DNA of 64,000 nucleotides, from positions 1 through 64,000 of the forward strand of contig CAWDOD010000003.1 in the NCBI GenBank assembly GCA_963803805.1. The letters are read 5' to 3'. Positions within the stretch are counted from its first letter, which is position 1. Each line of letters begins with the position of its first letter. Of this stretch, positions 11,809 through 36,925 are shown piece by piece. The DNA comes from an uncultured cyanobacterium (GTDB taxonomy: Bacteria > Cyanobacteriota > Cyanobacteriia > Cyanobacteriales > CAWCAG01). Position numbers and translations under genes: made by a program. Below the pieces are notes generated by a model. It saw only the letters and a list, made by a program, of their open reading frames with translations, was not told where the DNA came from and did not search any database.

Positions 11809-11871
11809 GGTGTACAACAAAGGGTATAGTGCATGCCCTGCGGGACACGCACCATACCCAAACCGTTAGCG
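11809..11871 (+). repeat. attC-like site 1
   Basis: GGTGTACAAC-aaa-GGGTATAGTGCATG...CACGCACCATACCC-aaacc-GTT. Confidence 0.85.
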
Positions 11872-12207
11872 GCAATACCTTAGTAATAAAGAAATTGGTT
11901 CATTGAAAATCTTGAATTGTAGGATTGACCTGATATTTGGTTTTGTCCTCTCAACCGAAGTACAGTTGGACTTCTCTTGGATTATAAACATGGTTCCATT
12001 TATAACAATTATGAATATGAAAAAAGTAGCAAGAACTCTGGAAATGGTTAAAACATTAATAGTTTTATGTGCAATTGGGGCAGGAACACTTCTGGGGAAG
12101 TCCAAGTACTTCGGTTGCAAGAGAATATTCCAAGCTCAACTTTCCTACAGAAATTCAAGAGTAAGTGTCGGGGGAGAAATCCCCCCTTCCCCACCAAATA
12201 TAATCTC

Positions 12208-13104
12208 ATGAAAAAATCTCCAATTGATGTCTTATTTTACGAGCTATTTGGTTTCTATCCTAATAAGGCTGGGAGTGCTTACGAAATTTTAACCGCTGCT
12301 GCTATAAGAATAATTACTGGTGAAGAAGTGGAATTAGACCAGCGAGTTATGGGCAACTATAGTGATACAATTTATCAAGTGGACGGGGTAACGAAGAGCC
12401 AGTCACACGAATCGATGATTGAGGCTAAAGACTATACAATTCAGAATAAGAAAGTCGGACGAGGAGACATTCAAAAATTGCAGGGAGCATTGAGCGATTT
12501 GCGTTTTAAAGAAGGATTATTTACTTCGGCTACTGACTTTACAAAACCAGCAAAGAAATATGCTGAATCTTCCTTTCTCAATCCTAGTCAAAAACCAGTA
12601 CAATTATATCAGATAAGACCCTCTACCGAGGAAGATGAAAAAGGGCGAATCAAAAAATTTGAGATCACAATGGTTATGGTTCTTCCAAATTTTGAAAAAG
12701 CTAAGTACAAATATGCTTGGACAGAAGAGGCAGTTGAAAAATTCAAAAAGAATGGATTAGCAAACAAACAAATTTCAATTAAGGTCGAGACTCTTTACGA
12801 GGATAATGGAAGTTTTGCCACTAGTATTCAAGATTTCACACATGATAACCAACCAATATTGATGGATATTGATGAAGAATTAGCTAAAGGTTGTTGGATC
12901 TTTCGAGGGCTTTGTATTAAGCATGAAAACGAATATTATGGACTAAAGGGAATTGATTACGAAATCCCTTATTATCGCTTTTCAAGTACGTTTACAATAG
13001 AATCAGAAGGGAAGCCTAAAATATACGTGGCATCTGAAAATGGAGATGTAAACAAACTTATTACGGATAAACAGCTAAGAGAAATGATACGAATCAAAAA
13101 ATAA
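12208..13104 (+). CDS. Cassette 2: Mrr-like PD-(D/E)xK restriction endonuclease domain protein
   Basis: YE...QVDG...IEAKDY motif. Likely ATG at 12208 (MKKSPIDV), after a ~340 bp leader. Confidence 0.7.
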   Translation: MKKSPIDVLFYELFGFYPNKAGSAYEILTAAAIRIITGEEVELDQRVMGNYSDTIYQVDGVTKSQSHESMIEAKDYTIQNKKVGRGDIQKLQGALSDLRFKEGLFTSATDFTKPAKKYAESSFLNPSQKPVQLYQIRPSTEEDEKGRIKKFEITMVMVLPNFEKAKYKYAWTEEAVEKFKKNGLANKQISIKVETLYEDNGSFATSIQDFTHDNQPILMDIDEELAKGCWIFRGLCIKHENEYYGLKGIDYEIPYYRFSSTFTIESEGKPKIYVASENGDVNKLITDKQLREMIRIKK

Positions 13105-13106
13105 AA

Positions 13107-13303
13107 GCCGCTAACATTCTGTATGAAATCATGGCTGGTCAGTGGTATACGGAACTTTAGCTCTTTGTAGAAAGCCCGTCAATCCGCAGGATTGACTTAG
13201 TGTATTGAGAAAAATTAGCAAGCCAATCCTGCGGATTGCCTAGTTAGTAACTTGAAACTTTTGTACTTTTAAATCAGCCACGCTTCATACAGTGGCGTTG
13301 GGC
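13107..13303 (+). repeat. attC-like site 2 (family B, ~195 bp)
   Basis: GCCGCTAAC-att-CTGTATGAAATCATGGCTG...CAGCCACGCTTCATACAG-tggc-GTT. Confidence 0.85.
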
Positions 13304-13337
13304 ACAATTTAAACGAACGACAGTAACAATATAAAAT

Positions 13338-15863
13338 ATGGTTGACTTTAAGAAAAGATTGAACAAATCTGCAATCGACAAGAAAACAGACCCGATTGAA
13401 ATATATGATTCTTTAGATAGGAGAAGTATTGCAGGTCCTTTAAGACCAGCACAGAATAAAATTCTTAAGGAATGGTATAATTCTCAGTCAACCAAAAAAG
13501 ACTTAATTATTAAACTTCATACGGGAGAGGGAAAAACATTAATTGGTTTATTAATTCTTCAATCCAAAATTAACGCAGACCAAGGCCCTTGTTTATATGT
13601 TTGCCCTAATAAATATCTTGTTCAGCAAGCTAAAAAAGATGCCAAAAAGTTTGGTATAAGTTATTGCTCTATTGAACCTGATGGTTCAGTTCCAAATGAA
13701 TTTATAGACGGTAAAAAAATATTGATAACACACGTTCAAAAAGTATTTAACGGTAAAACTGTATTTGGCATTGGGAATGATTACATACCAGTAGAAAATA
13801 TAGTTTTGGACGATTCACACGCTTGTATTGATTCTATAAGAGATTCTTTCACGATTAACCTTGACAAAGACCACCAGATTTATAAAAAATTGAGGGAATT
13901 ATTCAAAGATAGTTTGTCAGACCAAGGTCAGGGAACATTTTTGGAAATTGAGAATGGAGACTATAACTCGTTTTTGCCAATACCATATTGGAGTTGGATA
14001 GATAAGTCTGAAGAATTACTAAGTATTCTTTCAGAGTATCGAGAGGAAACAGAGTTAGCTTTTGCTTGGCCATTTATTAAAGACAACATTAAAAACTGTC
14101 AAGCATTCATATCAGGACAGAATATTGAAATCACACCAATTCACATACCTATTGAAAAGTTTACATTCTTTGATAATGCTAAACAAAGAATTTTGATGTC
14201 TGCTACAACGCAGGACGATTCCTTTTTTATAAAGGGTTTGGGTTTTAATATTGATGCTGTAAAATCACCTTTAACCAATCCCGAACAGATTTGGTCAGGA
14301 GAAAAAATGTTATTGATTCCCTCTTTAATAGATGAAAAACTTGACCGCATCACAATTGTTAATGCATTAGCCTCACCTTCTGCAAAGAACTATGGAGTAG
14401 TATCATTAGTTTCCTCGTTTTCAAAATCTGAAATTTACCATTCACTTGGTGCAATTGTTCCTAAATCAGAACAGATTGGTCAAGTAGTTGACCATTTAAA
14501 AAAAGGGAATTACAAAGAGACTGTTGTCTTTGCAAATAGGTATGACGGTATTGATTTGCCTGATGAAACTTGTCGTATTCTCGTACTTGATGGTAAACCA
14601 TTCTTTTATTCATTATCTGATAGATATGAAGAAGCCAATCGTGTAAATAGTGATTCAATTAATATCAAAATCGCGCAAAAAATAGAACAAGGTTTAGGTA
14701 GAAGTGTAAGAGGTGAGAAAGACTACTGCATTATCTTCTTGATTGGTGCAGACCTTGTAAAATTCATAAAAAGTAGCAGAACAAATAAATATTTCTCATC
14801 TCAGACAAAAAAACAACTTGAAATAGGACTTGAAATTGCTGAAATGGCAGTTGAAGAACTCTCCGACAAGAATCAACCAATGGATGCAATGAAGTCTTTA
14901 ATGAAACAACTTTTACAAAGAGACGAAGGTTGGAAAGAATTCTACAAAGAAGAAATGAATAAAATAGTATCAGAACAAAATAACAGTTCTATATATGAAA
15001 CATTGGTATTAGAGCGTAAAGCAGCAGTTTCAAACTATTCCGGAGACTATGAAAAAGCTTGTGATTCAATCCAAAAAATAGTCGACAATTACTGCAATAA
15101 TGAAAGTGAGCGAGGTTGGTACTTACAATTATTGGCTAGATACAAATATTTAGACTCAAAAGTAGAGGCTAATTCATTACAAAAATCTGCTTTTTTAAAA
15201 AACCACGAATTACTTAAACCAAGTGAAGGAATAAATTATAAAAAATTAGAATATATAAATGAAAATAGAGTTCAGAGAATTTTAAGCTACATAAAAAACT
15301 TCCAAAGCTATCAAGAGCTTATGATAAGCATTGAAGGTGTTTTAAGTGACCTAGAATTTGGAACTTCATCAGAAAAATTTGAATCTGCTTTGAAAGAACT
15401 TGGTTTAATGCTTGGCTTTTTAAGTGAACGCCCTGATAAGGAGTTTAAAAAAGGTCCTGACAATTTATGGTGCGGTGTCAGCAATCAATATTTCATTTTT
15501 GAATGCAAAAGTGAAGTAAACATTGAAAGACAAGAGATTAACAAAAATGAAGCAGGACAAATGAATACACATTGTGCTTGGTTTGAAAGTCAATATGGAG
15601 AATCTCAAGTCAAAAGAATTTTAATCATACCAACTAAAAATCTTTCTTATCACGGAGATTTTGGACGTGATGTTGAAATTATGCGAAGAGGGACACTCAA
15701 AAGTTTGCGTACCAATGTCAAATCATTTTTTAAGGAGTTTAGTAAATACGAAATTCAGTCTTTAACTGATGAAAAAATACAGGAATTTATAAACGCACAC
15801 AAACTAGACATTGAATCATTAAAAACCTTATACTCAGAAAAATACTATAAGAAAACAAATTAA
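13338..15863 (+). CDS. Cassette 3: SF2 (DinG/XPD-like) helicase with C-terminal PD-(D/E)xK nuclease-like domain (Hna-like architecture)
   Basis: HTGEGKT Walker A, LDDSH, SAT and QGLGRSVR motifs; C-terminal GPDNLW...FECKS. Confidence 0.75.
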   Translation: MVDFKKRLNKSAIDKKTDPIEIYDSLDRRSIAGPLRPAQNKILKEWYNSQSTKKDLIIKLHTGEGKTLIGLLILQSKINADQGPCLYVCPNKYLVQQAKKDAKKFGISYCSIEPDGSVPNEFIDGKKILITHVQKVFNGKTVFGIGNDYIPVENIVLDDSHACIDSIRDSFTINLDKDHQIYKKLRELFKDSLSDQGQGTFLEIENGDYNSFLPIPYWSWIDKSEELLSILSEYREETELAFAWPFIKDNIKNCQAFISGQNIEITPIHIPIEKFTFFDNAKQRILMSATTQDDSFFIKGLGFNIDAVKSPLTNPEQIWSGEKMLLIPSLIDEKLDRITIVNALASPSAKNYGVVSLVSSFSKSEIYHSLGAIVPKSEQIGQVVDHLKKGNYKETVVFANRYDGIDLPDETCRILVLDGKPFFYSLSDRYEEANRVNSDSINIKIAQKIEQGLGRSVRGEKDYCIIFLIGADLVKFIKSSRTNKYFSSQTKKQLEIGLEIAEMAVEELSDKNQPMDAMKSLMKQLLQRDEGWKEFYKEEMNKIVSEQNNSSIYETLVLERKAAVSNYSGDYEKACDSIQKIVDNYCNNESERGWYLQLLARYKYLDSKVEANSLQKSAFLKNHELLKPSEGINYKKLEYINENRVQRILSYIKNFQSYQELMISIEGVLSDLEFGTSSEKFESALKELGLMLGFLSERPDKEFKKGPDNLWCGVSNQYFIFECKSEVNIERQEINKNEAGQMNTHCAWFESQYGESQVKRILIIPTKNLSYHGDFGRDVEIMRRGTLKSLRTNVKSFFKEFSKYEIQSLTDEKIQEFINAHKLDIESLKTLYSEKYYKKTN

Positions 15864-15867
15864 AAAC

Positions 15868-16001
15868 TGTGCCCAACAATGTATATAAAAAATAGTCGAA
15901 ATAGTAGTAAAATCAAGGCTTTTGACTCGTATCAAAGTTCGTGCTTAACCGAAAGTTTTGTGCTTCGAAATCGCCTACTTTTCATATACTAACCGTTAAG
16001 C
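15868..16001 (+). repeat. attC-like site 3 (family A, ~130 bp)
   Basis: TGTGCCCAAC-aat-GTATATAAAAAATAG...CTACTTTTCATATAC-taacc-GTT. Confidence 0.85.
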
Positions 16002-16240
16002 GGCAATAAGTAAGTGCTTCTCATCGGTGGATGGTGGTAGCGAGATTTATGCTGCGCTTCGCAATACAATTAGTCGAAGAAATTTGCCCGTAGAAGCTCT
16101 GCTGCTCCACCGCCAGCTACTGCCTCGCGTCATAAAGTGAGGACTGACGTTCTAAGCCGCCATCGCTATATTTGTGTTGGCCGATAAAGTAGTCTTTCTT
16201 ATGGGCGACAGTGAATGATTAATTAAATTAAGAGGACAAC

Positions 16241-16375
16241 TGCCGCTAACAAAAGCTATACACCAGCAGGCGGGGGAAGTGGTCAGCCGCACCCGCAGTG
16301 CCTTCTGCTACTCTTGCTGTTGGCCGATAGTTGCGGGGTGATACGCCTGCCGGTGCATAGCTAAATACGTTGTGT
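16241..16375 (+). repeat. attC-like site 4
   Basis: TGCCGCTAAC-aaa-AGCTATACACCAGCAGGCG...CGCCTGCCGGTGCATAGCT-aaatac-GTT. Confidence 0.85.
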
Positions 16376-16397
16376 GTAATGTCGACTTAACGATAAG

Positions 16398-17198
16398 ATG
16401 AAGAATTTAGAAAAATATAAAGAAGATTTAGAGAATCTGATTTCGGAAGGCGACAGCTTACATATGTCTATGCAATTTGAGTGTTATCCAAAAGAATTTG
16501 AGGAACAATTAAAGCCGAGGTTAAAAGAAAAGTATGCTGATTATGTGAAAAAACTAAAGCCGTTTAAGCAAGACTATCAAACTTGGTATTCAGAATCTTT
16601 AGTTTTACTAAGGCAGTTATTGCCAGATAGAGTTGCTGACTTCACTAAACTCTATGAAAAACCACGGACGAGAAAAGTTATTGAATATGGCAATTATGTC
16701 ATTGAAGACTATCTTCAAAACCTGACCGTTACAAGAGGTTATGAAACTAAAGTTAAACCTGAAGCTGCAATAAGTCAATTTGAACAGCAAATTGCAATAG
16801 TTAAATCAATTAAGAAAAGATTTGAAAGCAGATTATTTGATATAAAGCAATTGACACAAGCTGACATATTTGATTCGGAATTGGATGCAGCAAGAGAGTT
16901 AAACAAAAAAGGATTTGTGAGAGGAGCTGGAGCAATTGCTGGTGTTGTATTGGAAAAGCACCTCGCTCAAGTGTGTGAAAATCATAAAATAAAAATAACT
17001 AAAAAAAATTCTTCAATCTCTGATTACAATGATAAACTCAAGACGTCAGAAATAATTGAAACAAAAGATTGGAGAAGGATTCAACATCTTGGAGATATTA
17101 GAAATCTTTGTGACCACAACAAGGAAAAAGAACCAAAGGAAGAAGATGCAGTGGATTTAATAGATGGAGTGGAAAAATTAATAAAAACGGTCTACTAA
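16398..17198 (+). CDS. Cassette 5a: protein with C-terminal HEPN-like domain
   Basis: AGAIAGVVLEKHL helix and RNLCDH (Rx4H) motif. Confidence 0.6.
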   Translation: MKNLEKYKEDLENLISEGDSLHMSMQFECYPKEFEEQLKPRLKEKYADYVKKLKPFKQDYQTWYSESLVLLRQLLPDRVADFTKLYEKPRTRKVIEYGNYVIEDYLQNLTVTRGYETKVKPEAAISQFEQQIAIVKSIKKRFESRLFDIKQLTQADIFDSELDAARELNKKGFVRGAGAIAGVVLEKHLAQVCENHKIKITKKNSSISDYNDKLKTSEIIETKDWRRIQHLGDIRNLCDHNKEKEPKEEDAVDLIDGVEKLIKTVY

Positions 17199-17221
17199 AA
17201 ACACTACGAACAACAATAAGT

Positions 17222-17788
17222 GTGATCTTAATGCAATTAGAAATATCAAAAATAATAGCAGATTTCATTGAGAATCGAATTTCAGCAAAGGAATTTGAAT
17301 CATGGGTTTATTCAAACCAACATCTTGAGGATGAATTGGGAATGGAACTCTATACAGAATTGATTTCAATTAATTTCAAGGATAGTTCTGCTAGAATAGC
17401 GGTTAAAAAACTTCTCGATTCTGAAATTGATTACAGAACGCTACATCGAACTCAATTAATACAGTTAATTGAAGAAATCGAGTTCAAAAAAAAAGATTTG
17501 TTAGATGGAATTAGGGAATTATACGAATGGGCGGACAAGGGATATGCATTTTTAGGAAGAATTAATTCAGTCGGAAATTTTGGCGAGCAAGGAAAGTCTG
17601 TAATTCTTATTGTAGACAAGGATTTGTCAAATGAGGAAAAATGGAATGTAATTTTGAGAGATGATCCTCATCTCCTTACAGATCTCAAGACTATTCGTAT
17701 GAAAATCGAACAGAATGAAATTCTAATAACAGGTGAAATAGAAACAGTTAAGTTTTTAGGAAGACAATACAAATATTTAGAAAAATAA
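17222..17788 (+). CDS. Cassette 5b: hypothetical protein
   Basis: 188-aa ORF ending directly before ACACACAAC. Confidence 0.6.
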   Translation: MILMQLEISKIIADFIENRISAKEFESWVYSNQHLEDELGMELYTELISINFKDSSARIAVKKLLDSEIDYRTLHRTQLIQLIEEIEFKKKDLLDGIRELYEWADKGYAFLGRINSVGNFGEQGKSVILIVDKDLSNEEKWNVILRDDPHLLTDLKTIRMKIEQNEILITGEIETVKFLGRQYKYLEK

Positions 17789-17789
17789 A

Positions 17790-17858
17790 ACACACAACAC
17801 TGTATATGAAATCATGGCACCCTGCGGGATGCCACGCTTCATATACTTAACGTTAGCA
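17790..17858 (+). repeat. attC-like site 5 (short)
   Basis: ACACACAAC-act-GTATATGAAATCATGGCA-ccctgcggga-TGCCACGCTTCATATAC-ttaac-GTT. Confidence 0.85.
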
Positions 17859-18853
17859 ACAACTCCCCTTCCATTCAAAAAACTCACTTAATAATCAATC
17901 AGTCTGCCCCTATTGTTGTACCTAAAACTTTGGCTACGCTCGGACTCGCCTTATCGATAATGTAAGTAGCGGACTGATAGGCATTCGGCAAACCTCTTTC
18001 CGCACGGCTACCTGCTTAGTTACTTATGCGGACTACTCAGCAGGCTGTGGAGAAAGCATGGTCTGGAACTGAATTCACAGCAACTTTCCCTCCCACCGGG
18101 ACGAGTAGGTATCTGCCAGCAGTGTAGCCTAGCGTGGGGACGATTTGAGATGCAGTTGCTAACACAATGTAAAAACCATGCGCTTACCCACCTTGTGGAC
18201 AGTTTATCAGTCAATCCCGCAATTTTGGCGAGCAGCGCAAAATAGTAAAAGGCCACCAGCCACCATAAATGGATAGGGGCAATTGACAGTAATCATAAAA
18301 TTGCTAACTTAACCTGCAAAATATACCGTGGCGCAAGGTTTTTACACGCGCCCGTTAGCAACAACTCCCTTTCCATTCAAAAACTCGCTGAATAATCCAT
18401 CAGTCTGCCACTAATACTGTATCTAAAACTTTTGCTACGTTCGGACGCGCCTTACCGACAATGTAACTAGCGGACTGATAGGCATTCGGCAAACCTCACT
18501 CCGAACGGCTACCCAATTAGTTATCTATGCGGACTGCTCAGCAGGCTGTGGAGAAAGCATAGTGGAACTGAATTCACAGCAACTTTCGCTCTCACCGGGA
18601 CGAGTAAGTATCTGCCAGCAGTGTAGCCTAGCGTGGGGACAATATGAGATGCAGTTGCTAACACAATGTAAAAACCATGCGCTTACCCACCTTGTGGACA
18701 ATTTATCAGTCAATCCCGCAATTTTGGCGAGCAGCGCAAAACAGTAAAAAGTCACCAGCAGCTATAAATGGACAGGGGCAATCGGCAGTAGCCATAAAAT
18801 TGCGAACTTAACCTGCAAAATATACCGTGGCGCACGGATTTTTACACGCGCCC
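17852..18853 (+). repeat. Cassettes 6 and 7: tandem diverged ~500-bp ORF-less cassettes with att sites 6 (18155-18360) and 7 (18654-18860)
   Basis: Two copies (17852-18353 and 18354-18853), each GTTAGCAAC...GTTGCTAAC followed by TGTAAAAACCATGCGC...GCGCA..TTTTTACA-cgcgccc-GTT. Confidence 0.85.
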
Positions 18854-18887
18854 GTTAGGTGTCATTAAATAAAACTGTACTGCATAA

Positions 18888-19998
18888 ATGAAACAATTAA
18901 CATACATAAAAGCTAAACAGTTAATTTGGGAAGAAAAGGCTGAACCTCAAATAATTTTGAGTGACGATGCTCTAGTAAGGCCATTTATTGTAGCTAGATG
19001 TGATTTAGATGCTGCATTTCTTTTTAGAAATGCTTATAAATATGTTTCAGTAGGTAGACTATTTGGACAATTAGATAAAAAAATAGGTGAAATTGTGCGT
19101 CCAGACTTGTTTGTAGAGGACCCTTCCCCTTTTGGTCACGAATGTGTAGCTGAAATCGTTGAATTAGGAAAAGACATAAAAAATTTTAGGATTGGTCAAA
19201 AAGTTATTATTCCATTTCAAATATCTTGTGGCGTCTGTCCAATTTGTTCATCTGGATTGACAAGTCAATGTGAAAAAACAGGCAGTTTTAATATGTTTAG
19301 CGGTATAGGAAAACACGTTTCTAACGGAGGAACGATGTCCGAGATCTGAAAAATTCCTTTCGCTAATAAAATGCTATTCCTATTCCGGAGGGCCTGAATA
19401 TCGAAGGGTTGGGTAGCGCAAGCGACAATTTGCCAGATGCTTGGTCGAGAGTAGCACCATTTTTATTAAATAAACCCAATCAGGAAGTTCTCATAATTGG
19501 AGGAACGGCCAAAAGTGTTGGACTTTATGCATCTGGATTTGCTGTCAAGATGCACGCCAAACAAGTTGACGATATTGACACTTCAAAGGAAAGAATCGAT
19601 ATCGCTAGGAAAATTGGAGCAAATGTCATCCATAAGAATTTCCAAAGAGCATTCTGAAAGTTATGACTTAATAGTTAATGCTTCAAGCTTAACCAAGGCA
19701 ATTGATTATGGAATGAATCACTTAAAACCAGGAGGAATTTTATCTTCGGCAATGATATACTTAAATAAAGAAAATCAACATACCTTATTTTCAAATGTAT
19801 GCCAAGAATCTCACCTTAAAAACGGGACTGGCAAATCCAATGTCAGATATACCACAGATGTTAAACTTCATAAATGAAAATAAGATTCAGCCTGAAATAG
19901 TTACAACACATCTTAGTAATTGGGAAAATGCAGCAACCGACTTACTCAAGCAGACAACGAAAGTAATCATTAAGAGAAATCCTATTAAGAATGAATAA
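18888..19998 (+). pseudogene. Cassette 8: Zn-dependent alcohol dehydrogenase-like gene, fragmented into four ORFs
   Basis: GHEC and CGVCPIC...C motifs in the first fragment; reading continues in shifted frames to 19998. Confidence 0.75.
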
Positions 19999-19999
19999 C

Positions 20000-20133
20000 G
20001 ACACCTAACAATGTATATAAAAAATAGGCGAAACAGTAGTAAATCCAAAGATTTTAGCTCGTTTCTAACTTTTTGCTTAAATGAAAGTTTAGTGCTTCGA
20101 AATCGCCTACTTTTCATATACCAAACGTTAGCG
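20000..20133 (+). repeat. attC-like site 8 (family A)
   Basis: GACACCTAAC-aat-GTATATAAAAAATAGGCGA...TCGCCTACTTTTCATATAC-caaac-GTT. Confidence 0.85.
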
Positions 20134-21555
20134 GCAATACCTTAGTAATAAAGAAATTGGTTCATTGAAAATCTTGAATTGTAGGATTGACCTGATATTT
20201 GGTTTTGTCCTCTCAACCGAAGTACAGTTGGACTTCTCTTGGATTATAAACATGGTTCCATTTATAACAATTATGAATATGAAAAAAGTAGCAAGAACTC
20301 TGGAAATGGTTAAAACATTAATAGTTTTATGTGCAATTGGGCAGGAACACTTCTGGGGAAGTCCAAGTACTTCGGTTGCAAGAGAATATTCCAAGCTCAA
20401 CTTTCCTACAGAAATTCAAGAGTAAGTGTCGGGGGAGAAATCCCCCCTTCCCCACCAAATATAATCTCATGAAAAAATCTCCAATTGATGTCTTATTTTA
20501 CGAGCTATTTGGTTTCTATCCTAATAAGGCTGGGAGTGTTACGAAATTTTAACCGCTGCTGCTATAAGAATAATTACTGGTGAAGAAGTGGAATTAGACC
20601 AGCGAGTTATGGGCAACTATAGTGATACAATTTATCAAGTGGACGGGGTAACGAAGAGCCAGTCACACGAATCGATGATGAGGCTAAAGACGATACAATT
20701 CAGAATAAGAAAGTCGGACGAGGAGACATTCAAAAATTGCAGGGAGCATTGAGCGATTTGCGTTTTAAAGAAGGATTATTTACTTCGGCTACTGACTTTA
20801 CAAAACCAGCAAAGAAATATGCTGAATCTTCCTTTCTCAATCCTAGTCAAAAACCAGTACAATCATATCAGATAAGACCCTCTACCGAGGAAGATGAAAA
20901 AGGGCGAATCAAAAAATTTGAGATCACAACGGTTATGGTTCTTCCAAATTTTGAAAAAGCTAAGTACAAATATGCTTGGACAGAAGAGGCAGTTGAAAAA
21001 TTCAAAAAGAATGGATTAGCAAACAAACAAATTTCAATTAAGGTCGAGACTCTTTACGAGGATAATGGAAGTTTTGCCACGAGTATTCAAGATTTCACAC
21101 ATGATAACCAACCAATATTGATGGATATTGATGAAGAATTAGCTAAAGGTTGTTGGATCTTTCGAGGGCTTTGTATTAAGCATGAAAACGAATATTATGG
21201 ACTAAAGGGAATTGATTACGAAATCCCTTATTATCGCTTTTCAAGTACGTTTACAATAGAATCAGAAGGGAAGCCTAAAATATACGTGGCATCTGAAAAT
21301 GGAGATGTAAACAAACTTATTACGGATAAACAGCTAAGAGAAATGATACGAATCAAAAAATAAAAGCCGCTAACATTCTGTATGAAATCATGGCTGGTCA
21401 GTGGTATACGGAACTTTAGCTCTTTGTAGAAGCCCGTCAATCCGCAGGATTGACTTAGTGTATTGAGAAAAATTAGCAAGCCAATCCTGCGGATTGCCTA
21501 GTCAGTAACTCGAAACTTTTGTACTTTTAAATCAGCCACGCTTCATACAGTGGCG
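20127..21555 (+). pseudogene. Cassette 9: near-identical copy of cassette 2 (Mrr-like nuclease) with frameshifts, including att site 9 (21366-21561)
   Basis: Matches 11865-13297 from GTT to GTT; 1-nt deletions near 20538 and 20679 break the ORF. Confidence 0.9.
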
Positions 21556-21589
21556 TTGTAGTGCATTAAAAAAGAAACCTCAGTTAAGC

Positions 21590-22063
21590 TTGACAGATTC
21601 GAGACTACATATAGAAAAGTTAGAAGAGAACAGCGACATCCCTTATGATCTACTTGAATTAGCGGATCCATCGAGAATTCAGATAAATGAATATTTAAAA
21701 ACGGGAACTTGTTATTTGGCGAAAGTTGACTCTAGAGTGGTTGGAGTTTTGGTTCTTAACCAAATCGACTCTACAAGTATTGAAGTGAAAAACATAGCCG
21801 TTGACGCACGTGAACAAGGTAAAGGTTTTGGTAAGGCATTACTTAGATATTCGGAATTAGTAAGTCGAGAATTAGGATTTGATAAATTGATAATTGGGAC
21901 AGGAAATTCAAGTCTTGACCAACTTGCGCTTTATCAGAAAGTGGGCTTTGAGATGCTTGAAATTCAAAAAGACTATTTCATAAAGAATTACACCGAACCT
22001 ATTTTTGAGAACGGAATCCAGTGTAAGCATATGGTCATTTTAGAAAAGAATGTAAGAAAATAA
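21590..22063 (+). CDS. Cassette 10: GNAT acetyltransferase
   Basis: NIAV..EQGKGFGKALL and GTGNSSLDQLALYQKVGF motifs. Confidence 0.85.
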   Translation: MTDSRLHIEKLEENSDIPYDLLELADPSRIQINEYLKTGTCYLAKVDSRVVGVLVLNQIDSTSIEVKNIAVDAREQGKGFGKALLRYSELVSRELGFDKLIIGTGNSSLDQLALYQKVGFEMLEIQKDYFIKNYTEPIFENGIQCKHMVILEKNVRK

Positions 22064-22069
22064 AATAAC

Positions 22070-22201
22070 GCACTACAACAATCGCGAAGAAAACATGGGG
22101 CGACACAAACTGAAATCGAGCAATAATCTTCGCAGTTTAGTCCGTCACAGCTGGACAGACAAGAACTCTGAAATCCCACGTTTCTTAGCTTAGCGTTATA
22201 T
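22070..22201 (+). repeat. attC-like site 10 (family C variant)
   Basis: GCACTACAAC...AAGAAAACATGGG...CCCACGTTTCTT...GTT. Confidence 0.8.
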
Positions 22202-22230
22202 TGAATTAGGAATCACCTACCAAAGTCAAC

Positions 22231-23757
22231 TTGAACCTCGTAGAAAAACATTTCAGAAAAACAGAGAAACTTCTCAAGCTGATTGATAAGAACAGAATTT
22301 CGAACTGGCTTCTGAACGATGGCTACTTCCCAGAACAATATGTTTTACCTCCAACTTTTAGGGTTGACAAATTCAAGCTGAAGTCTAAACCCGAATTCAA
22401 GGATATTAATGATCTGCCAAGATTCGAGATAAACTCTATCTCCTATCCAAAATCATCTTTAACTTCTAGAGAGTTCGGTATTCAACACCCAAGAAACTAT
22501 CACGACATAGTATTTTGGCTGAATCAAGAATGGGAGTTTATTCTTAAACATCTCTTTCCTAAGAAACTCAAAATTTTCTCATACAGCATGCCAATTCCCG
22601 TTAACTCAAGATCAATTGGGAAACTAGGTAAGCTGCGTTCAGGAAGATTAATTTATGAGTGGATAACAATGACTGAAAAAGACCTTGTTGCTGAAGCGAG
22701 CAAGTATAAATTAATCGTCCGCTCGGATATTACGAACTTTTATAATTCAATATATACTCACAGTATTGGATGGGCGCTTCACGGACAAGAGAAAGCCTTC
22801 AAAGACAAGAAAAGTAGTTTACTAGGAAATAAGATTGATAAGTTGGTTCAATATGCCAACTATGGCCGAACTAATGGTTTACCAGTTGGATCAGCTTTAA
22901 GTAATTTAATCGCGGAACTGATACTCACCAAGGTAGATTTGAACGTATCAAAAAAACTAAAATCAGTTGACTTTCTAGCTACAAGATTTAAAGATGACTA
23001 TCGAATCCTATGCCATAATGATGATGATGCAAAACACATTCTCAAAGTGCTTGCAGATGAATTAAGAGAGTTCAATTTGCTAATTAATGAATCCAAAACA
23101 GCAATCCTCGAACTTCCTACTGGACTGTACAGACAGCACGATAGAGACTTCCATCCATTCTCTGTTAAGCGCAAGAAAAGTATAGGTTTTAAAACCTTTG
23201 AACTCACATTGCTCAAAGTTCTTGATATTCACCGTGAATATCCAGGAACCAGCATTATTGAAAAATACTTCAGCGAACTATTTGACAAGGACTATATACT
23301 CAAAATCAAATTCTCAAATCACACAGCATCAAAAAAGAAACAGATTTATAGTGCACTCAGTCTTCTCCTATTAACAAAACGAGAATCAGAAAAATCTATG
23401 AGCGCAATTCTTTCACTAATTGAGGTAATATACCTTGATAACCGATCAACATCTTTAAAAGAGCATCTGAAGGAACTTATCATGGCAGAAATTAAACTTG
23501 CTAATGAGAAGAAATCTGCATTTGACTTAGCTTGGCTAATCTTCTTCTCAAGGTATTTGTCATTGGGAATTAATGAGGTTTGGATAAGATGTAACGTTAA
23601 CTCAGAACTAAGAAAGAACTCATTTGTGGCTTCCATATTTTTAAGCAAACAGAAGATATTTACTGATTCGAAAGTGGATCTTTTTCAAAAACCCAAAGAC
23701 TGCAAAGACATATCACTTGCCAAAAGATTGGCAGTTTTCGAGCGAGACAAAACGTAA
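22231..23757 (+). CDS. Cassette 11: reverse transcriptase of Abi/UG (defence-associated) type
   Basis: DITNFYNSIYTHSIGWALHG, GLPVGSALS and catalytic RFKDDY; helical C-terminal extension. Confidence 0.82.
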   Translation: MNLVEKHFRKTEKLLKLIDKNRISNWLLNDGYFPEQYVLPPTFRVDKFKLKSKPEFKDINDLPRFEINSISYPKSSLTSREFGIQHPRNYHDIVFWLNQEWEFILKHLFPKKLKIFSYSMPIPVNSRSIGKLGKLRSGRLIYEWITMTEKDLVAEASKYKLIVRSDITNFYNSIYTHSIGWALHGQEKAFKDKKSSLLGNKIDKLVQYANYGRTNGLPVGSALSNLIAELILTKVDLNVSKKLKSVDFLATRFKDDYRILCHNDDDAKHILKVLADELREFNLLINESKTAILELPTGLYRQHDRDFHPFSVKRKKSIGFKTFELTLLKVLDIHREYPGTSIIEKYFSELFDKDYILKIKFSNHTASKKKQIYSALSLLLLTKRESEKSMSAILSLIEVIYLDNRSTSLKEHLKELIMAEIKLANEKKSAFDLAWLIFFSRYLSLGINEVWIRCNVNSELRKNSFVASIFLSKQKIFTDSKVDLFQKPKDCKDISLAKRLAVFERDKT

Positions 23758-23760
23758 AAC

Positions 23761-23880
23761 TCAATATAACAAACACTATCATCCATAAGCTTACAGAGCT
23801 ATTTGCAAAGGCTGGTGCTATAAGATACTTTTATAGAAATTTGAAAAGTCTAGCTTACGGATGATAGTTGGGCGTTGGCG
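23761..23880 (+). repeat. attC-like site 11
   Basis: TCAATATAAC-aaac-ACTATCATCCATAAGCT...AGCTTACGGATGATAGT-tgggc-GTT. Confidence 0.85.
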
Positions 23881-23908
23881 GTAATTTGAGAAAAACGAAA
23901 AAAACAAT

Positions 23909-24641
23909 ATGAATATTAAACGATTAGCATTCGGACTTCTGACAATTGGACTTATAAGTTGCAATTCGACACCGAAAGAAAAGAACACAAAAGAAACAGA
24001 AACCTATCCCGACATTAAAATTGTAGGTGCAATGAAAAACGTGATGTGGAAAGGCGAATTAGGAAGTAGCATTGATCTTGACACTATTTCGGAGAAAAAT
24101 GGACTTTATGGACTTGGACCTGTAAGTTTCTTGACAGGCGAATTGCTGATTAATAACGGAAAGAGTTATGTGTCAAAAGTTACTTCTGATTCAACAATGA
24201 AAGTTGAAAAAACCTTTAATACATCAGCACCATTCTTTGTTTATGGAAACGTAACTGAATGGAACGAAATAGATTTGCCTTCTAACGTTAAAACAATTCA
24301 AGATTTAGAAAAATTCATTGTCGACAAAACAACTGAATTCAAAAGACCTTTCACCTTTAAAATAATTGGACAGGTTTCAAGTGCGATTATCCATATTCAG
24401 AATTTACCCGAAGGAACAAAAGTGTCATCGCCAGATGAAGCACATCAAGGTCTAGACAAATTACAATATTGGAAAAGAAGATGCTGAAATAATCGGATTT
24501 TTCTCGACCGAACACAAAGGAGTTTTTACACATCACGACTCATTTTTGCATCTGCACTTGATAACAAAAGACGAAAGCAAAATGGGACATTTAGACGAAT
24601 TAGAAATCGGAAAAATGAAACGATATCTACCGAAAAAATAA
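23909..24641 (+). pseudogene. Cassette 12: alpha-acetolactate decarboxylase-like lipoprotein, frameshifted near 24450
   Basis: LYGLGP..LTGE motif; the shifted frame continues IGFFSTEHKGVFTHHDSFLHLHLI. Confidence 0.7.
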
Positions 24642-24646
24642 AAAAA

Positions 24647-24778
24647 TACCGCCAACAATGTATATAAAAAATAGGCAAAACAGTAGTAAATTCAAGGCTT
24701 TTGGCTCGTCAAACTTTGTGCTTAACCGAAAGTTTAGTACTTCGAAATTGCCTACTTTTCATATACTAAAAGTTATAA
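24647..24778 (+). repeat. attC-like site 12 (family A)
   Basis: TACCGCCAAC...family A stem...GTT. Confidence 0.85.
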
Positions 24779-24792
24779 GCAATGATAACTGC

Positions 24793-25215
24793 ATGAAGAA
24801 AATATTAATAATAGCCGCTGTAGTGATAATTGGTGTGATTCTTTATCTGAATTACCTAGTTAAGGAACACGACTTAAGGCCATTACATAAATATGAAGAC
24901 ATTCAAATACCTGTAGGTCTTGATTGTTCTTCTGTCCGATTAGGGAATTTTGAAACTGAGAAATCATATATTGAAAGAACAGAAAGCAAACAAATTCAAA
25001 CGAACAAAGCAACCGGTGACAAGAAGGAATTTTACATGGATTGGAAAAGCAATTGTGAATATGTTCTGACATCAGTAAATGATGAATCTGAAGTGATAAG
25101 AATTAAAATTACTGCAGTTAACCCTGACAACTATGGCTGCTATGTGATTTCTGATAAATATGCGGACAATTACCCAAATTTTTTATCAATTACGCGTGTT
25201 AAAAAAAGCTTATAA
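24793..25215 (+). CDS. Cassette 13: hypothetical membrane-anchored protein
   Basis: MKKILIIAAVV start; the TAA stop lies inside GCTTATAAC. Confidence 0.65.
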   Translation: MKKILIIAAVVIIGVILYLNYLVKEHDLRPLHKYEDIQIPVGLDCSSVRLGNFETEKSYIERTESKQIQTNKATGDKKEFYMDWKSNCEYVLTSVNDESEVIRIKITAVNPDNYGCYVISDKYADNYPNFLSITRVKKSL

Positions 25216-25404
25216 CATTCTGTATGAAATCATGGCTGGTCAGTGCTAGACGCGACTTTGGTGCTTCGTGGCTAGCCCGTCAATCCGCAGGATTGACTTA
25301 CTGTGTTGAAATAATTTAGCAAGCCAATCCTGCGGATTGACTCGGTGGTAAACCGAAACTTTTGTACTTTTAAATCAGCCACGATTCATACAGTGGCGTT
25401 ACCT
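25208..25404 (+). repeat. attC-like site 13 (family B)
   Basis: GCTTATAAC-att-CTGTATGAAATCATGGCTG...CAGCCACGATTCATACAG-tggc-GTT. Confidence 0.85.
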
Positions 25405-25431
25405 TTCATAAAAGAGCAAATTACAGAGCAC

Positions 25432-25956
25432 ATGAAAATAATCCTTTTTACCATCATCTTCTTTGTCTCACTTTCAATTAACGGACAAGGCTTTCATGAT
25501 CGTCATCCAGAACTATCAAAGTTTGCTAAAAATATTGATGACCAATTAGAATCATACAAATCAGTTATACTTGAAAACGAGGCGTTTCTTGATAATATGA
25601 CGGACGGAGGAGGAATTCTAAAAGGCTATTTTTCAGGGGACAAAATCGTTAAAATTGAACTTTGGGCTGGAGTTTCGAACGGCAAACATGAATTTGACTA
25701 CTATTTTAAAGAATCTGAACTGTTCTATATAGTAGAGTCATTCAAGCGATATTCTTATGACGTGAACTCTGACACGTGGGACTACTCTAAACTGGTACAG
25801 TCATTCCAAGGAGACTACCTTTTCTTACCTACTTTTGACTACGAAACACTAGGACACAATAGATTCGAAAATGATGAGTTTGACCCCGAAGAGACATTGG
25901 CTGAGGAAGTAGAAGAGTATGTTAAACTTCTGAACGAGAAAAGAAACGAAAGGTAA
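25432..25956 (+). CDS. Cassette 14: secreted hypothetical protein
   Basis: Signal peptide MKIILFTIIFF; stop lies inside GAAAGGTAAC. Confidence 0.65.
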   Translation: MKIILFTIIFFVSLSINGQGFHDRHPELSKFAKNIDDQLESYKSVILENEAFLDNMTDGGGILKGYFSGDKIVKIELWAGVSNGKHEFDYYFKESELFYIVESFKRYSYDVNSDTWDYSKLVQSFQGDYLFLPTFDYETLGHNRFENDEFDPEETLAEEVEEYVKLLNEKRNER

Positions 25957-26144
25957 CATTCTGTATAAATCATGGCTGTTAGTAGGTTATTGTTCCTTTA
26001 GCTCTTTGTAGAAAGCCCGGCAATTTGCAGGATTGACTTATTGGTGAATATTAATTTAATAAGCCAATCCTGCGGATTGCCTCGGTAGTTCACTGAAATT
26101 TTTATACTTTTAATCAGCCACGAATTTATACAGTGGCGTTAGCT
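25948..26144 (+). repeat. attC-like site 14 (family B)
   Basis: GAAAGGTAAC-att-CTGTATAAATCATGGCTG...CAGCCACGAATTTATACAG-tggc-GTT. Confidence 0.85.
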
Positions 26145-26166
26145 GTTATTAAATAATGAGAAGATT

Positions 26167-27006
26167 ATGATTGACCCTGTAACTGGATTGACAATTTTAG
26201 GAGGAGCCTTCGGGGGAGCAAAAGTTCTTGAAAAAATATTAGGCCCTACCTCTGAATATATTGGTGACCAAATAAAGGAATGGACAAAAAAGAAAGTTGA
26301 AAATACTTCCAATATTTTCAAAAATGCAGAGAAAAAACTTGGTGATAAGATTAAGAATGATGGCCAGGTTCCTCCAAAGGTTCTAAAAGGAATATTAGAA
26401 GATGGTGCCTGGTGCGAAGAAGATCTGCAGGTAGAATATTTTGGAGGCGCTCTTGCTTCTTCCAGATCAGGTGTATCCAGAGATGATAGAGGTGCTTATT
26501 TTGTGTCCTTAATTGCAAGATTAACTACGTATCAATTAAGAACTCACTATCTATTTTATCATTTAATAAAGAAGCACTTTGATGGTCAAGATATAAACAT
26601 CAATGATGGTAATAATTGGAGAAACCTTGAAATTTTCCTGCCTTTCGAAACATTTTACCACGCTATGGATTTTACGGAAGATGAAGCCAACGATTGGTCG
26701 AACATCCTTTCCCATGCGGTTTGGGGATTGAACAAAGAAGAACTTTTGACTGGTTTTAGCTGGGGGCCAAAAGATCATGTCCAGAAGAAATTCAAACTTG
26801 CGGACACGGATGGAATAATCTTTCAACCTACAAAATCTGGTGTAGAATTATTTATGTGGGCATACGGTCATGGACAAGATTCAGTAAACAACTTCTTTAG
26901 TTCTGAACTCATATTCCCTAACGATCAAGCAATCAAAATTGGCAGCTCTGTTTCGACAAAAGAGGAAAAAGAAATGGAGCAAGAAAAAAAGAAAAACAAC
27001 AGCTAA
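26167..27006 (+). CDS. Cassette 15: hypothetical protein, possibly Abi-alpha-like
   Basis: VPPKVLKGILEDG..EEDLQVEYFGGALASS pattern; family guess is tentative. Confidence 0.5.
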   Translation: MIDPVTGLTILGGAFGGAKVLEKILGPTSEYIGDQIKEWTKKKVENTSNIFKNAEKKLGDKIKNDGQVPPKVLKGILEDGAWCEEDLQVEYFGGALASSRSGVSRDDRGAYFVSLIARLTTYQLRTHYLFYHLIKKHFDGQDININDGNNWRNLEIFLPFETFYHAMDFTEDEANDWSNILSHAVWGLNKEELLTGFSWGPKDHVQKKFKLADTDGIIFQPTKSGVELFMWAYGHGQDSVNNFFSSELIFPNDQAIKIGSSVSTKEEKEMEQEKKKNNS

Positions 27007-27052
27007 CAAAACCTAAACTGCATTAAAACGCAGTTTAGCCAAACCGTTGTGC
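26998..27052 (+). repeat. attC-like site 15 (minimal, 55 bp)
   Basis: AACAGCTAAC-aaaac-CTAAACTGC-attaaaac-GCAGTTTAG-ccaaacc-GTT. Confidence 0.85.
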
Positions 27053-27076
27053 GTCATTTAAAAATGAAACTTTGAA

Positions 27077-27700
27077 ATGCAAATTAAACCTGAAGAATTA
27101 GATAATAATGGGTACGTCCTAATAGACAGTTTAGGACATAAGGAACTTATTCCATTTGTGAGAACATACTTAAAAAAGCGGACAAAAATTTCATCATTTT
27201 ACACAGTCTCTAATATAATTATAGTTGTTGCAATAATATTTTGTTTTTGGCAAAATTATGGAATTGGTGATTTTAGTTTGGGTAGTGGAATTACATATTT
27301 TACTTATGGAATGGCTATTGCATTTGGACTGATACCATTACACGAATTTATCCACGTTTTAGCTTATAAATCTCAAGGTGCTGAAAAAACATCCTATGGG
27401 GCGAATTTAAAAAAATTTCATTTTATGGCAATTGCTGATAAGTTTGTTGCCAACAAAAAAGAATTTCAAGTTGTTGCCCTTGCACCATTTATAGTCATAT
27501 CTATTATTTTGGGAATTCTTCTATTTTTTGTTTCAAATCTATGGGATTTTACAATTCTAGGAATATTGCTCACTCATACGGCTTTTTCTTCAGGAGATTT
27601 TGGTTTATTAAGCTACTTTGAATTTAACAATGACAGAGAAATTATAACCTACGATGATAAAGAAAATAACATTTCATATTTTTATGGAAAGATTAAGTAA
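27077..27700 (+). CDS. Cassette 16: DUF3267-like membrane zinc metallopeptidase
   Basis: LHEFIH (HExxH), ALAPF and SSGDF motifs; transmembrane segments. Confidence 0.75.
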   Translation: MQIKPEELDNNGYVLIDSLGHKELIPFVRTYLKKRTKISSFYTVSNIIIVVAIIFCFWQNYGIGDFSLGSGITYFTYGMAIAFGLIPLHEFIHVLAYKSQGAEKTSYGANLKKFHFMAIADKFVANKKEFQVVALAPFIVISIILGILLFFVSNLWDFTILGILLTHTAFSSGDFGLLSYFEFNNDREIITYDDKENNISYFYGKIK

Positions 27701-27709
27701 AAAAAACGA

Positions 27710-27842
27710 ACGCACAACAATGTATATAAAAAATAGGCGAAACAGTACTAGATTCAAGGCTTTTGGCTCGCCTCAAAGTTGGTACTTAACCGAAAGTTTG
27801 GTACTTCGAAATCGCCTACTTTTCATATACTCAACGTTGTAT
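27710..27842 (+). repeat. attC-like site 16 (family A)
   Basis: ACGCACAAC...family A stem...GTT. Confidence 0.85.
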
Positions 27843-27895
27843 GTAATTAAACCTTACCGTACAAAGACAGTCTAAGAAGTAAAATCGTTGTTCTT

Positions 27896-28924
27896 ATGAA
27901 AAGTAATTTAATATTGTTTTTACCAATCATACTATTCTGCATCTCCTGCGGAAAAGATTCCGTCACCCCAATAAATGAAGAAATAAGCACTGCCAGTACT
28001 TTTTCAGGAATAATTTGTTTGGTTACTAATGCACAAGCAGATCCCGCATTTACTTTTGACATGCCTTATATTGATGGGGTTAAACTTCGTCTTGGATGGA
28101 GAAATATTGAGCAATCTAATAATGTTTATGATTGGTCTTTAATAGATAGCTATGTTGAGGAAGCAAGAACAAGAGATAAGGATTTAAGTATTAGTATTGC
28201 AGGTGGGTCAGCTTCGCCTCAATGGTTAATTGCCATGCTTGAACCAAGTGAGTATGTTATTGCCAGAGGTAACATCGTTCCAAATCTTTGGAATGAAACT
28301 TATGTAACGGAGTATATTCAGTTTATAGAAGCTTTTGGTGCAAGGTATGTCAATGAAAAATATGTTTCTCACATCACAGTATCAGGAATAGGATACACAA
28401 ATGAACCCGTTATTCCGCCACCTTTTGGATTGGAAGTGCTTGAAGAATGGTCTATATCAAGTAATCGTATAATTGATGCTTACATTGCTAACTTTCCAGC
28501 AAAGGCTATTTCCATACCTGTTCATACTCAAATATCTACAGAAGACACTTGGGATTTTTTCAAAGAGCACGTGCTAAACCCTACTTACCTTAAATCAGAA
28601 AATATTGGTTTAGAATATCATGGTCTTGATGCAACAGCTTCATCCATTGAAGGAACGATAGCCGACAACTATTATCAGGAAATAAAGGATATTGCCGAAT
28701 TTAGAACAACGGGCTATCAATTTGTATGTTCGACTATTGGGAACAGTGTGTGTGATCCAGCCTGGGTAAATGGTTCATCTCAAAATACGGATAATCTATT
28801 ACAAAGAACATTAGAAGCTGGCGTGATAAACGGAGCAGATTTTATAGAAGTATATGCTAATGATGCTTCAGATCCTACAAATCTTGAACTTTTTAAAAGT
28901 ATTTCAACCCTATTGAAGGAATGA
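27896..28924 (+). CDS. Cassette 17: lipoprotein with glycoside-hydrolase-like TIM barrel
   Basis: Lipobox ISC; RLGWRNIE...YDWSLID and SPQWL resemble beta-galactosidase-like GH-A proteins. Confidence 0.55.
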   Translation: MKSNLILFLPIILFCISCGKDSVTPINEEISTASTFSGIICLVTNAQADPAFTFDMPYIDGVKLRLGWRNIEQSNNVYDWSLIDSYVEEARTRDKDLSISIAGGSASPQWLIAMLEPSEYVIARGNIVPNLWNETYVTEYIQFIEAFGARYVNEKYVSHITVSGIGYTNEPVIPPPFGLEVLEEWSISSNRIIDAYIANFPAKAISIPVHTQISTEDTWDFFKEHVLNPTYLKSENIGLEYHGLDATASSIEGTIADNYYQEIKDIAEFRTTGYQFVCSTIGNSVCDPAWVNGSSQNTDNLLQRTLEAGVINGADFIEVYANDASDPTNLELFKSISTLLKE

Positions 28925-28928
28925 AAAC

Positions 28929-29062
28929 TACATACAACAAAGTATATAAAAAATAGGCGAAATAGTAGTGAAATCAATACTTTTGGCTCGTTTCAAACTT
29001 TATGTTTTACCGAAAGTTTAGTTCTTCCTAACTGCCTACTTTTCATATACTAAACGTTGTAG
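28929..29062 (+). repeat. attC-like site 17 (family A)
   Basis: TACATACAAC...family A stem...GTT. Confidence 0.85.
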
Positions 29063-29084
29063 TGCATTAAAATACCTTGTTTAC

Positions 29085-29363
29085 ATGAAATCTGAGATTG
29101 AATCAATTCTTACAAAGTATCGAGGGAAATTATCAATTTGCTCATGTACTAAAAATGAATTGACTAATCTGTTAGAATTCGACCATCATGTTGTGAAAAT
29201 TAATGGTGAGAAGGGTGTACTAATTACATATCATTTAATAGGTACAAAAATGGAATGCGATTTTTATGAAGTAATAGTTGTTCATGAATACGTCATTAGT
29301 CATCCTTCGGTACCCGACCATGTCAATCAAATTATAGATAAAATGGATTGGGAAAGAAAATGA
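29085..29363 (+). CDS. Cassette 18: small hypothetical protein
   Basis: 92-aa ORF filling the cassette between GTTGTAGTGC and GCACTACAAC. Confidence 0.6.
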   Translation: MKSEIESILTKYRGKLSICSCTKNELTNLLEFDHHVVKINGEKGVLITYHLIGTKMECDFYEVIVVHEYVISHPSVPDHVNQIIDKMDWERK

Positions 29364-29367
29364 AACC

Positions 29368-29500
29368 GCACTACAACAACACATATAGCTTATGGCGGGT
29401 GAACAGCTACCAGCAAGGGTTTCGCTCCGTAGCCAGCCTTGGTTTCAATGGACAGGAAAGTGCGTCGAAAGCGCCACAAGCCATATGCAAACCGTTAGCG
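29368..29500 (+). repeat. attC-like site 18
   Basis: GCACTACAAC-aaca-CATATAGCTTATGGCG...CGCCACAAGCCATATG-caaacc-GTT. Confidence 0.85.
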
Positions 29501-29672
29501 CCAATAACGCTTATCTCTCTTTCACAGTAGCAATAAAGCTCGCATAAATTAGAGATTACTTCGTAAAAAATAATCCAATCGCAATTTAACAATCTCGTAG
29601 AGTAGAATTCATTCAGGAATTATTCTTTTGAGATACGAAAAAGTATCAATACAAAAATAAAACACATCTTAT

Positions 29673-29720
29673 ATGACAGGGTTGTCATTTATTTCATTAC
29701 ATTTGTGACAGGGTTGTCAT
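29673..29720 (+). promoter_or_regulatory. Tandem TetR-type operators flanking a Bacteroidota -7 promoter element
   Basis: ATGACAGGGTTGTCAT (29673-29688), TACATTTG (29698-29705, matches TAnnTTTG) and TGACAGGGTTGTCAT (29706-29720). Confidence 0.75.
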
Positions 29721-29733
29721 TAATGTAATAAAT

Positions 29734-36924: not shown

Positions 36925-36925
36925 C

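Follow-up and report, generated by a model that had tools for sequence, protein, structure and literature searches.

A cassette with an Mrr-like restriction gene lies twice, at positions 2 and 9, in a chromosomal array of 27 cassettes from a marine Bacteroidota bacterium, and probably became duplicated through copy-and-paste movement of an integron-type unit by an Xer-like tyrosine recombinase that lacks the I2 insertion of integron integrases (IntI). The array thereby points to an integron-like system that appears to move cassettes though its enzyme is not a classical integron integrase. Copy-and-paste is favoured because the identity between the two copies spans the cassette from its left G to its right GTTG within unrelated flanks, and because two further cassettes (6 and 7) show a second duplication with the same GTT ends. 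Features of the window (the whole stretch of 64,000 nt that was analysed) are collected in Table 1.

Table 1. Positions in the window of the recombinase, its array and the duplicated cassette
Feature	Position	Strand	Basis or remark
Tyrosine recombinase, 377 aa	9988..11121	+	Pfam Phage_integrase, Phage_int_SAM_4
attI-like entry site	11134..11167	+	12-bp hairpin 11134-11145 / 11148-11159, spacer CGGTT, crossover G 11165
Whole cassette array, 27 att sites	11165..46776	+	Chain script; first G to last G
Cassette 1, Imm33-like protein, left neighbour of copy A	11166..11865	+	Pfam Imm33-like 5.8e-41
Copy A of cassette	11865..13297	+	Array position 2, left G to right G
Long imperfect hairpin in cassette 5' leader, both copies	11895..12165		Inverted repeat and DNA fold
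Intact Mrr-like (type IV restriction endonuclease-like) gene, 298 aa, copy A	12208..13104	+	Pfam Mrr_cat, PADLOC
Cassette's own att site, copy A	13113-13297 (with boxes 13107..13305)	+	187 nt
Cassettes 6 and 7, ORF-less tandem duplication	17853..18854	+	Ends at GTT
att site 8, left neighbour of copy B	20007..20127	+	123 nt, D1 repeat family
Copy B of cassette	20127..21555	+	Array position 9; four one-base deletions and six substitutions against copy A
Broken gene, copy B	20469..21363	+	Frameshifts at codons 24 and 71
att site of copy B	21372-21555 (with boxes 21366..21563)	+	186 nt

Results

The two copies and their boundaries

Copy A (1433 nt) and copy B (1429 nt) differ at 10 places and are 99.3% identical, according to an alignment with 100-nt flanks (11765-13397 against 20027-21655) and a global alignment of the cores alone. 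The sequence-only reading, which had called the two stretches near-identical, was right in its description and in its coordinates, and a 1.4-kb match at 99% identity is far beyond chance. Across the whole genome (11 contigs, 5.3 Mb) there are two full copies plus two partial matches that comprise the att site alone. Mapping the boundaries by alignment, as had been proposed, leaves homology beyond the GTT points of one letter on the left, a single C outside the G (ACCATACCCAAACC|GTT in copy A against TTCATATACCAAAC|GTT in copy B), and of GTTG on the right, past which the copies diverge (GTTGGGCAC vs GTTGTAGTG); the flanks are unrelated in sequence. Both boundaries map to the G|TT of R' boxes, as the earlier reading had it, and the same is seen for the left end in a third context (see below). 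Two of its other claims stand as well: the repeat is one cassette with its own att site, the downstream site lying inside the repeat in both copies, and the upstream att sites 1 and 8 are unrelated, differing in sequence and in size (52 vs 123 nt).

All four one-base deletions sit in the distal copy B (at copy-A coordinates 12077, 12278, 12419 and 13171), and the six substitutions are at 12433, 12605, 12671, 12822, 13245 and 13253. At each of these six, the + strand of copy A has T where that of copy B has C or G. An intact proximal and a damaged distal copy had been claimed, and this is what the genes look like. The copy-A protein has an Mrr_cat domain that passes the Pfam cut-off (39.3 bits vs 21), a weak match to PADLOC mREase_IV (5.8e-06) and the residues D59...E72-A73-K74, of which we take E72-A73-K74 (with D59) to be the putative catalytic motif. 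Two frameshifts interrupt the distal gene, the second of them (codon 71) immediately before this putative catalytic motif, and the gene also carries Y76D, L133S and M155T together with one synonymous substitution; its sole remaining open frame is a C-terminal one of 208 aa (20737-21363). Distant homologues of the Mrr-like protein (40-55% identity) occur in 15 of the 20 metagenome loci examined, mostly outside a cassette context (0-3 chain links), and no outgroup for the two copies was gained among them.

The gene is preceded by a leader of 340 nt, whose long hairpin is built on an exact 12-nt inverted repeat (11952-11963 / 12106-12117) and folds as DNA with -37.6 kcal/mol (z -4.8). Rfam gave no match to this hairpin or elsewhere in 9000-48000 (E up to 0.1), and we rejected it as a relic att site, given AAC/GTT flanks that do not fit the chain described below. 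At the other end of the cassette, the cassette start (GTTAGCGGC) recurs in reverse complement as the R'' box of the copy-A att site (GCCGCTAAC), the R' box of that site is the right boundary given above, and its bottom strand folds with -34.8 kcal/mol (z -4.8). The att site of copy B has the same fold energy with one deletion and two substitutions.

The cassette in other samples

When Logan contigs of four runs were aligned to 9500-24000 of the window, two algae-metagenome runs (X1, X4) turned out to hold the same cassette over 11865-13112 at 98.6% identity, X1 in one 3369-nt contig with 17 differences and 0 gaps over this span, X4 in two shorter contigs covering the same span. In X1 record 1 and X4 record 9 the match begins exactly at 11865, with unlike sequence before it, and these contigs provide a third context for the left end of the cassette. 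There being no gaps, and none of the 14 listed differences (of 17) falling on a position at which copies A and B differ, we therefore regard copy B as the changed one. On the right, the match between the metagenome contigs and the window ends at 13112, three letters short of the AAC in R'', and the att site is not shared beyond this point. The metagenome version has a short AAC...GTT hairpin upstream that resembles the entry-site hairpin; judged by this layout, the cassette may be in first position there, with a different or disrupted att site. A plasmid collection yielded two short weak matches only and a phage collection no match.

The cassette array

The array was traced with a script that pairs AAC...GTT with paired inner boxes and tests the nine letters at each GTT as the reverse complement of the next R''. 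It returns an unbroken chain of 27 att sites: over 26 consecutive junctions, the nine letters that open each cassette (GTTnnnnnn) are the reverse complement of that cassette's own R'' box, the exceptions being cassette 4, with a 1-nt indel, and att site 24, with G->A. Such a chain of complementarity between cassette start and R'' is what defines the geometry of integron cassettes. Nearly all genes of the 27 cassettes lie on the + strand. GC content drops from 41-44% in the flanks (outward of about 8 kb and 50 kb) to 31-37% through most of the array, in which two intergenic repeat families, D1 (7 copies) and D2 (4 copies), recur. Copies A and B are 8.3 kb apart, with six unrelated cassettes between them. 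Among these, cassettes 6 and 7 share about 91% mean column identity (over an aligned stretch that includes short flanks), each has an att site of 196 nt, and together they are a second, older duplication.

Some junctions deserve mention in their own right. att site 1 (11816-11865, 52 nt, with the AAC of R'' at 11816 and the G of R' at 11865) folds more stably on its bottom strand (-16.5 kcal/mol) than on its top strand (-12.9). att site 24 (40029-40145) ends in ATTAGAGCC in place of GTT..., the next R'' (GGCTCTAAC) still fits, and this junction, with its crossover G changed to A, may be frozen. An IS91-like element (44228-46650, GC 46%) sits inside att site 27, between R'' (GTGCCCAAC, 44219-44227) and the remainder of the site, and encodes a 286-aa tyrosine recombinase of its own beside pieces of a Y2 transposase and an IS91 zinc-binding domain. 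This second recombinase (45666-46526) was rejected as part of the platform, as it belongs to the IS91-like insertion. Beyond the last att site, the stretch 46777-49083 has genes of low GC (SnoaL-like, pirin, DUF5996), and no further att site was detected there. A genome of the same genus matches the right flank from about 49083 onward, with no array beside it, and the left flank (5500-9950) was not found in that genome.

Cargo of the other cassettes

The array is rich in phage-defence cargo. Besides the Mrr-like gene, cassette 3 (13338-15863) encodes a protein that matches PDC-S28, a candidate defence helicase in PADLOC, over its full length (1097 bits), and cassette 11 (22231-23757) encodes a UG14-type defence reverse transcriptase (RT_UG14, 657 bits); further cargo includes GNAT acetyltransferases, TetR/ABC sets and beta-lactamase-fold proteins. 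Cassettes with the beta-lactamase fold (PF00144) lie at 35656-36924 and 38931-40021, and the gene of the second is split (frames of 122 and 246 aa). Cargo rich in phage defence is reported for Vibrio chromosomal integrons, and the present array is a parallel. Cassette 8 (18855-20127), which adjoins copy B, holds a decayed gene for a zinc-type alcohol dehydrogenase: relative to a near-identical, low-depth relative (run X5), three one-base indels rejoin its pieces in one frame, with one in-frame stop left, and cassette 8 is therefore decayed, too.

Folding of the att sites

Each att site is built of an R box, a spacer that stays unpaired and a long L stem; in an alignment of 12 of them, AAC and GTT are invariant and the L boxes pair. 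Among the 26 sites that were mapped and folded, the bottom strand is the more stable in 20, by 1.5 kcal/mol on average, and minimum-energy folds contain 77 G.T pairs on the bottom strand against 27 on the top; both counts come from sites that fall in repeat families and are not independent. In nine att sites whose stems otherwise differ, A stands opposite G at positions 7 and 12 of a continuous stem, so that the bottom strand has G.T wobbles there and the top strand A.C mismatches. D2-type sites carry a small asymmetric internal loop. Classical attC sites have extrahelical bases where these stems have the two G.T wobbles. Together, the bottom-strand bias of the folds and the G.T wobbles argue that a single folded (bottom) strand may be the recombination substrate, as it is in integrons.

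The recombinase

The only recombinase at the array head is encoded on the same strand as the cassettes and has an extra N-terminal domain (about aa 1-105) ahead of its core-binding and catalytic domains. The sequence-only reading had drawn its parallel from known integrons, yet the platform is not a classical one: the protein scores 196.1 bits against NCBIfam TIGR02249 (IntI), below the cut-off of 265, and does so in two stretches that skip profile positions 179-239. Aligned to VchIntIA (2a3v), its residues 280-302 (23 residues) face residues 179-244 of the chain (66), so that about 43 residues including I2 are missing. The spacing from KG.K.R to H.LRH is 64 in six close homologues (L007-L011, L024; a table of relatives that leaves out the window's own recombinase) as compared with 106 in two true IntIs. 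The archaeal XerA model (XerA_Arch) gives 212.9 bits at a cut-off of 220, and Foldseek ranks IntI 2a3v level with XerA 5hxy (E ~1e-16) for the AlphaFold model of the recombinase (pLDDT 82). A quick tree of 64 rows, with a narrow IntI sample and an uncertain root, separates the recombinase family (17 rows) and IntI (12 rows) into clades with 99% support each. From these comparisons, the recombinase is Xer-like with an extra N-terminal domain and not an IntI. No protein of the genome exceeds the IntI cut-off of 265 bits, which is why we favour this recombinase as the enzyme that would cut the att sites.

The N-terminal domain (first ~105 residues) has a conserved beta-beta-alpha-beta-beta-alpha-beta order. 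Pfam has no family that matches it at E values as high as 10, Foldseek against the PDB gave nothing below E 0.1, and the protein atlas returned only unnamed Bacteroidota clusters (0.84-0.86). VIA-align gave middling scores, with best Z values of 6.2 for the N-terminal part of T4 UvsW, 6.1/5.9 for XPB and 4.0 for SMARCAL1 HARP, and a likeness of the modelled domain to UvsW, XPB or HARP may serve as a lead only.

Relatives of the recombinase and the entry site

Full-length relatives (53-76% identity) are numerous yet patchy in Bacteroidota, the best named ones being from Marivirga (60-72% identity). The recombinase was found in none of a set of 40 relatives (E up to 1e-40), and a profile of the N-terminal domain hits four of the 401 genomes in a phylum sample, the own genome included. 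We collected loci with more than 50% identity to the recombinase and at least 4 kb of downstream sequence (n=5). Four of the five carry chains of 3-6 att sites downstream of the homologue: L007, L008 (Winogradskyella ursingii), L009 (Flavobacteriaceae S0862) and L024 (Aequorivita sinensis), that is, three flavobacterial isolate genomes and one Bacteroidota MAG share the array type. The fifth, L011, is a close homologue with no detectable array in 10 kb downstream. Judged by four of five loci, recombinase and array seem to go together.

The first cassette begins 44-71 nt past the recombinase stop codon in L008, L009 and L024 and about 0.9 kb past it in L007. In the window, the crossover (G|TTGTACACC) is 44 nt past the stop codon, and the layout of this region (hairpin, four or five letters, then GTT) is common to the window and L008, L009 and L024. 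Across five sequences, a 7-pair helix in the entry region is 97% paired, and five of its seven pairs are changed on both sides.

Discussion

How the cassette may have been copied

The duplication most likely arose by copy-and-paste inside this genome, through an excision that would have been replicative. The recombinase most likely acts on the bottom strand of a folded att site and cuts it between G and TT; the cassette would leave as a circle and be inserted either at the entry site behind the recombinase stop codon or at a different att site. Copy B, at position 9, would be the older one, from an early entry, and cassettes 8 to 3 (in this order) would have been added ahead of it since. Copy A would then stem from an excision of the older copy on one sister chromosome, followed by insertion at the array head; cassette 1 would have arrived after copy A, and the distal copy would then have decayed, with two frameshifts in its gene, three residues exchanged and one silent substitution. 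Bottom-strand attC recombination with replicative resolution has reportedly been described for integrons. The sequence-only reading had seen in the repeat the mobile unit, its crossover point and reinsertion near the entry site; the unit and the crossover point stand, and the last part is less well borne out, the intact copy being at position 2 and not at the entry site.

We count several observations against copy-and-paste. The intact copy occupies position 2 instead of 1; the 10 differences all lie on one copy, and the six substitutions all run from T to C or G; the cassette version in the metagenome seems to be without this att site past 13112; and the close homologue L011 appears to have no array within 10 kb downstream. 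A rival reading has copies A and B as two alleles captured independently, at different times, from a circulating pool of cassettes. The cassette does circulate, as its 98.6% identity in another context on the algae-metagenome contigs suggests, and two copies that differ by 0.7%, with the intact one nearer the entry site, are compatible with separate arrivals. Against this, A and B match each other at 99.3% and the metagenome version at 98.6%; they have an att site in common that is missing from that version past 13112; and all differences that can be polarised are on copy B, as expected from a recent ancestor identical to A. To our minds, independent capture is unlikely.

Ordinary segmental duplication, be it through homologous or illegitimate recombination or replication slippage, would require the GTT ends to have arisen by chance. 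Repeated att sites (seven D1 and four D2 copies) could promote unequal crossing over, but att sites 1 and 8, the left flanks here, offer no homology for a crossover, six unrelated cassettes separate the copies, and both ends fall exactly on the crossover point of all 26 other junctions, which renders such an event exceedingly improbable. An artefact, either one cassette placed twice by the assembler or sequencing errors posing as copy-B deletions, strikes us as very improbable, too. It is true that the two-copy arrangement is assembly-based, with no sequencing run in our search holding at least half of the sampled words (best share 0.34), that two of the four deletions are in runs of three or four identical bases (GGGG, AAA) and a third in a TT pair, and that the neighbouring cassette 8 also shows its three one-base indels against a close relative. 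Yet a false duplicate would be identical, and here there are 10 differences, six of them substitutions, and distinct, unique flanks on both sides; moreover, long frames in the window are intact (1569, 841, 661 and 508 aa), implying a low rate of indel errors. Copy-and-paste of the cassette by the I2-less recombinase, weighed with the observations counted against it, is the reading we hold to be probable.

Comparison with known systems

Cassette duplication alone is textbook integron behaviour, and the value of the present case is in where it is found: a cassette cleanly copied between two G|TT points, with the sole recombinase next to the array being without I2. Duplicated cassettes are mentioned for the V. 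cholerae array in the available text of a preprint (bioRxiv 10.1101/2024.07.02.601686), and IntI1-driven duplication of a cassette into first position is described in that of another report (PMC8618304). As in classical integrons (the V. cholerae chromosomal one, or class 1 under selection), the copied unit is the gene with its own att site, ends at the G|TT of R' and has one copy nearer the entry site, and the att sites resemble classical attC in being imperfect palindromes with R''(..AAC)/L''...L'/R'(GTT..) boxes. The core-binding and catalytic domains are alike in IntI (TIGR02249, 2a3v) and the window recombinase. Unlike IntI, the latter lacks the IntI-specific insertion (I2) and has an extra N-terminal domain; unlike classical integrons, in which intI is divergent and attI lies upstream of its start, it is co-oriented with the cassettes and has a hairpin entry site just past its stop codon; and unlike classical attC, many att stems have two G.T wobbles at fixed positions. 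Co-orientation is known from some IntI groups, as far as the available text goes (bioRxiv 10.1101/2022.02.06.479319). Held against the classical integron, the platform agrees in attC form and G|TT ends and differs in the IntI insertion, the IntI cut-off and the orientation of intI.

The text available of two further sources gives integrons as nearly absent from Bacteroidetes (PMC9024848) and attributes single-strand hairpin recombination to the I2 helix of IntI, an innovation said there to allow it (PMC7790495). We consider it possible, and put it forward tentatively, that the recombinase and its relatives form a separate integron-like lineage that recombines folded single-stranded att sites without I2, the N-terminal domain, with a fold possibly like that of UvsW, XPB or HARP, and the G.T wobbles at fixed stem positions taking the place of I2 and extrahelical bases. 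If true, the two duplications would be natural proof that an I2-less lineage is active and shares the G|TT crossover.

Among published systems, the closest appears to be rAID-1, the recombinase-associated acquired interbacterial defence clusters of Bacteroidales (Ross et al. 2019; bioRxiv 10.1101/471110), to go by the text available of it. No description of the platform outside Bacteroidales was found in the open literature, subscription journals and supplements being outside this search, and the platform seems to be a variant of an integron-like kind that is poorly described in print. According to that text, rAID-1 shares with the window array co-directional downstream genes of lower GC, repetitive intergenic sequences and a conserved motif region directly past the recombinase stop codon, and the Imm33-like protein of the first cassette adds to the likeness. 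Its criteria are a 5' XerD-like recombinase more than 44% identical to BF9343_RS08045 and at least two co-directional genes downstream (bioRxiv 10.1101/471110), and Bacteroidales relatives among our loci are 42-49% identical to the window recombinase. The two differ in host, rAID-1 being described from Bacteroidales and the window's recombinase having its nearest named relatives in Marivirga, and in cargo, which the text gives as T6SS immunity genes for rAID-1 and which here is mostly phage defence and miscellaneous genes with one Imm33-like cassette. In the text available, the rAID-1 paper defines no crossover point or mobile unit; for the present platform, the duplication fixes both and gives a pair of substrates and junctions for a recombination assay.
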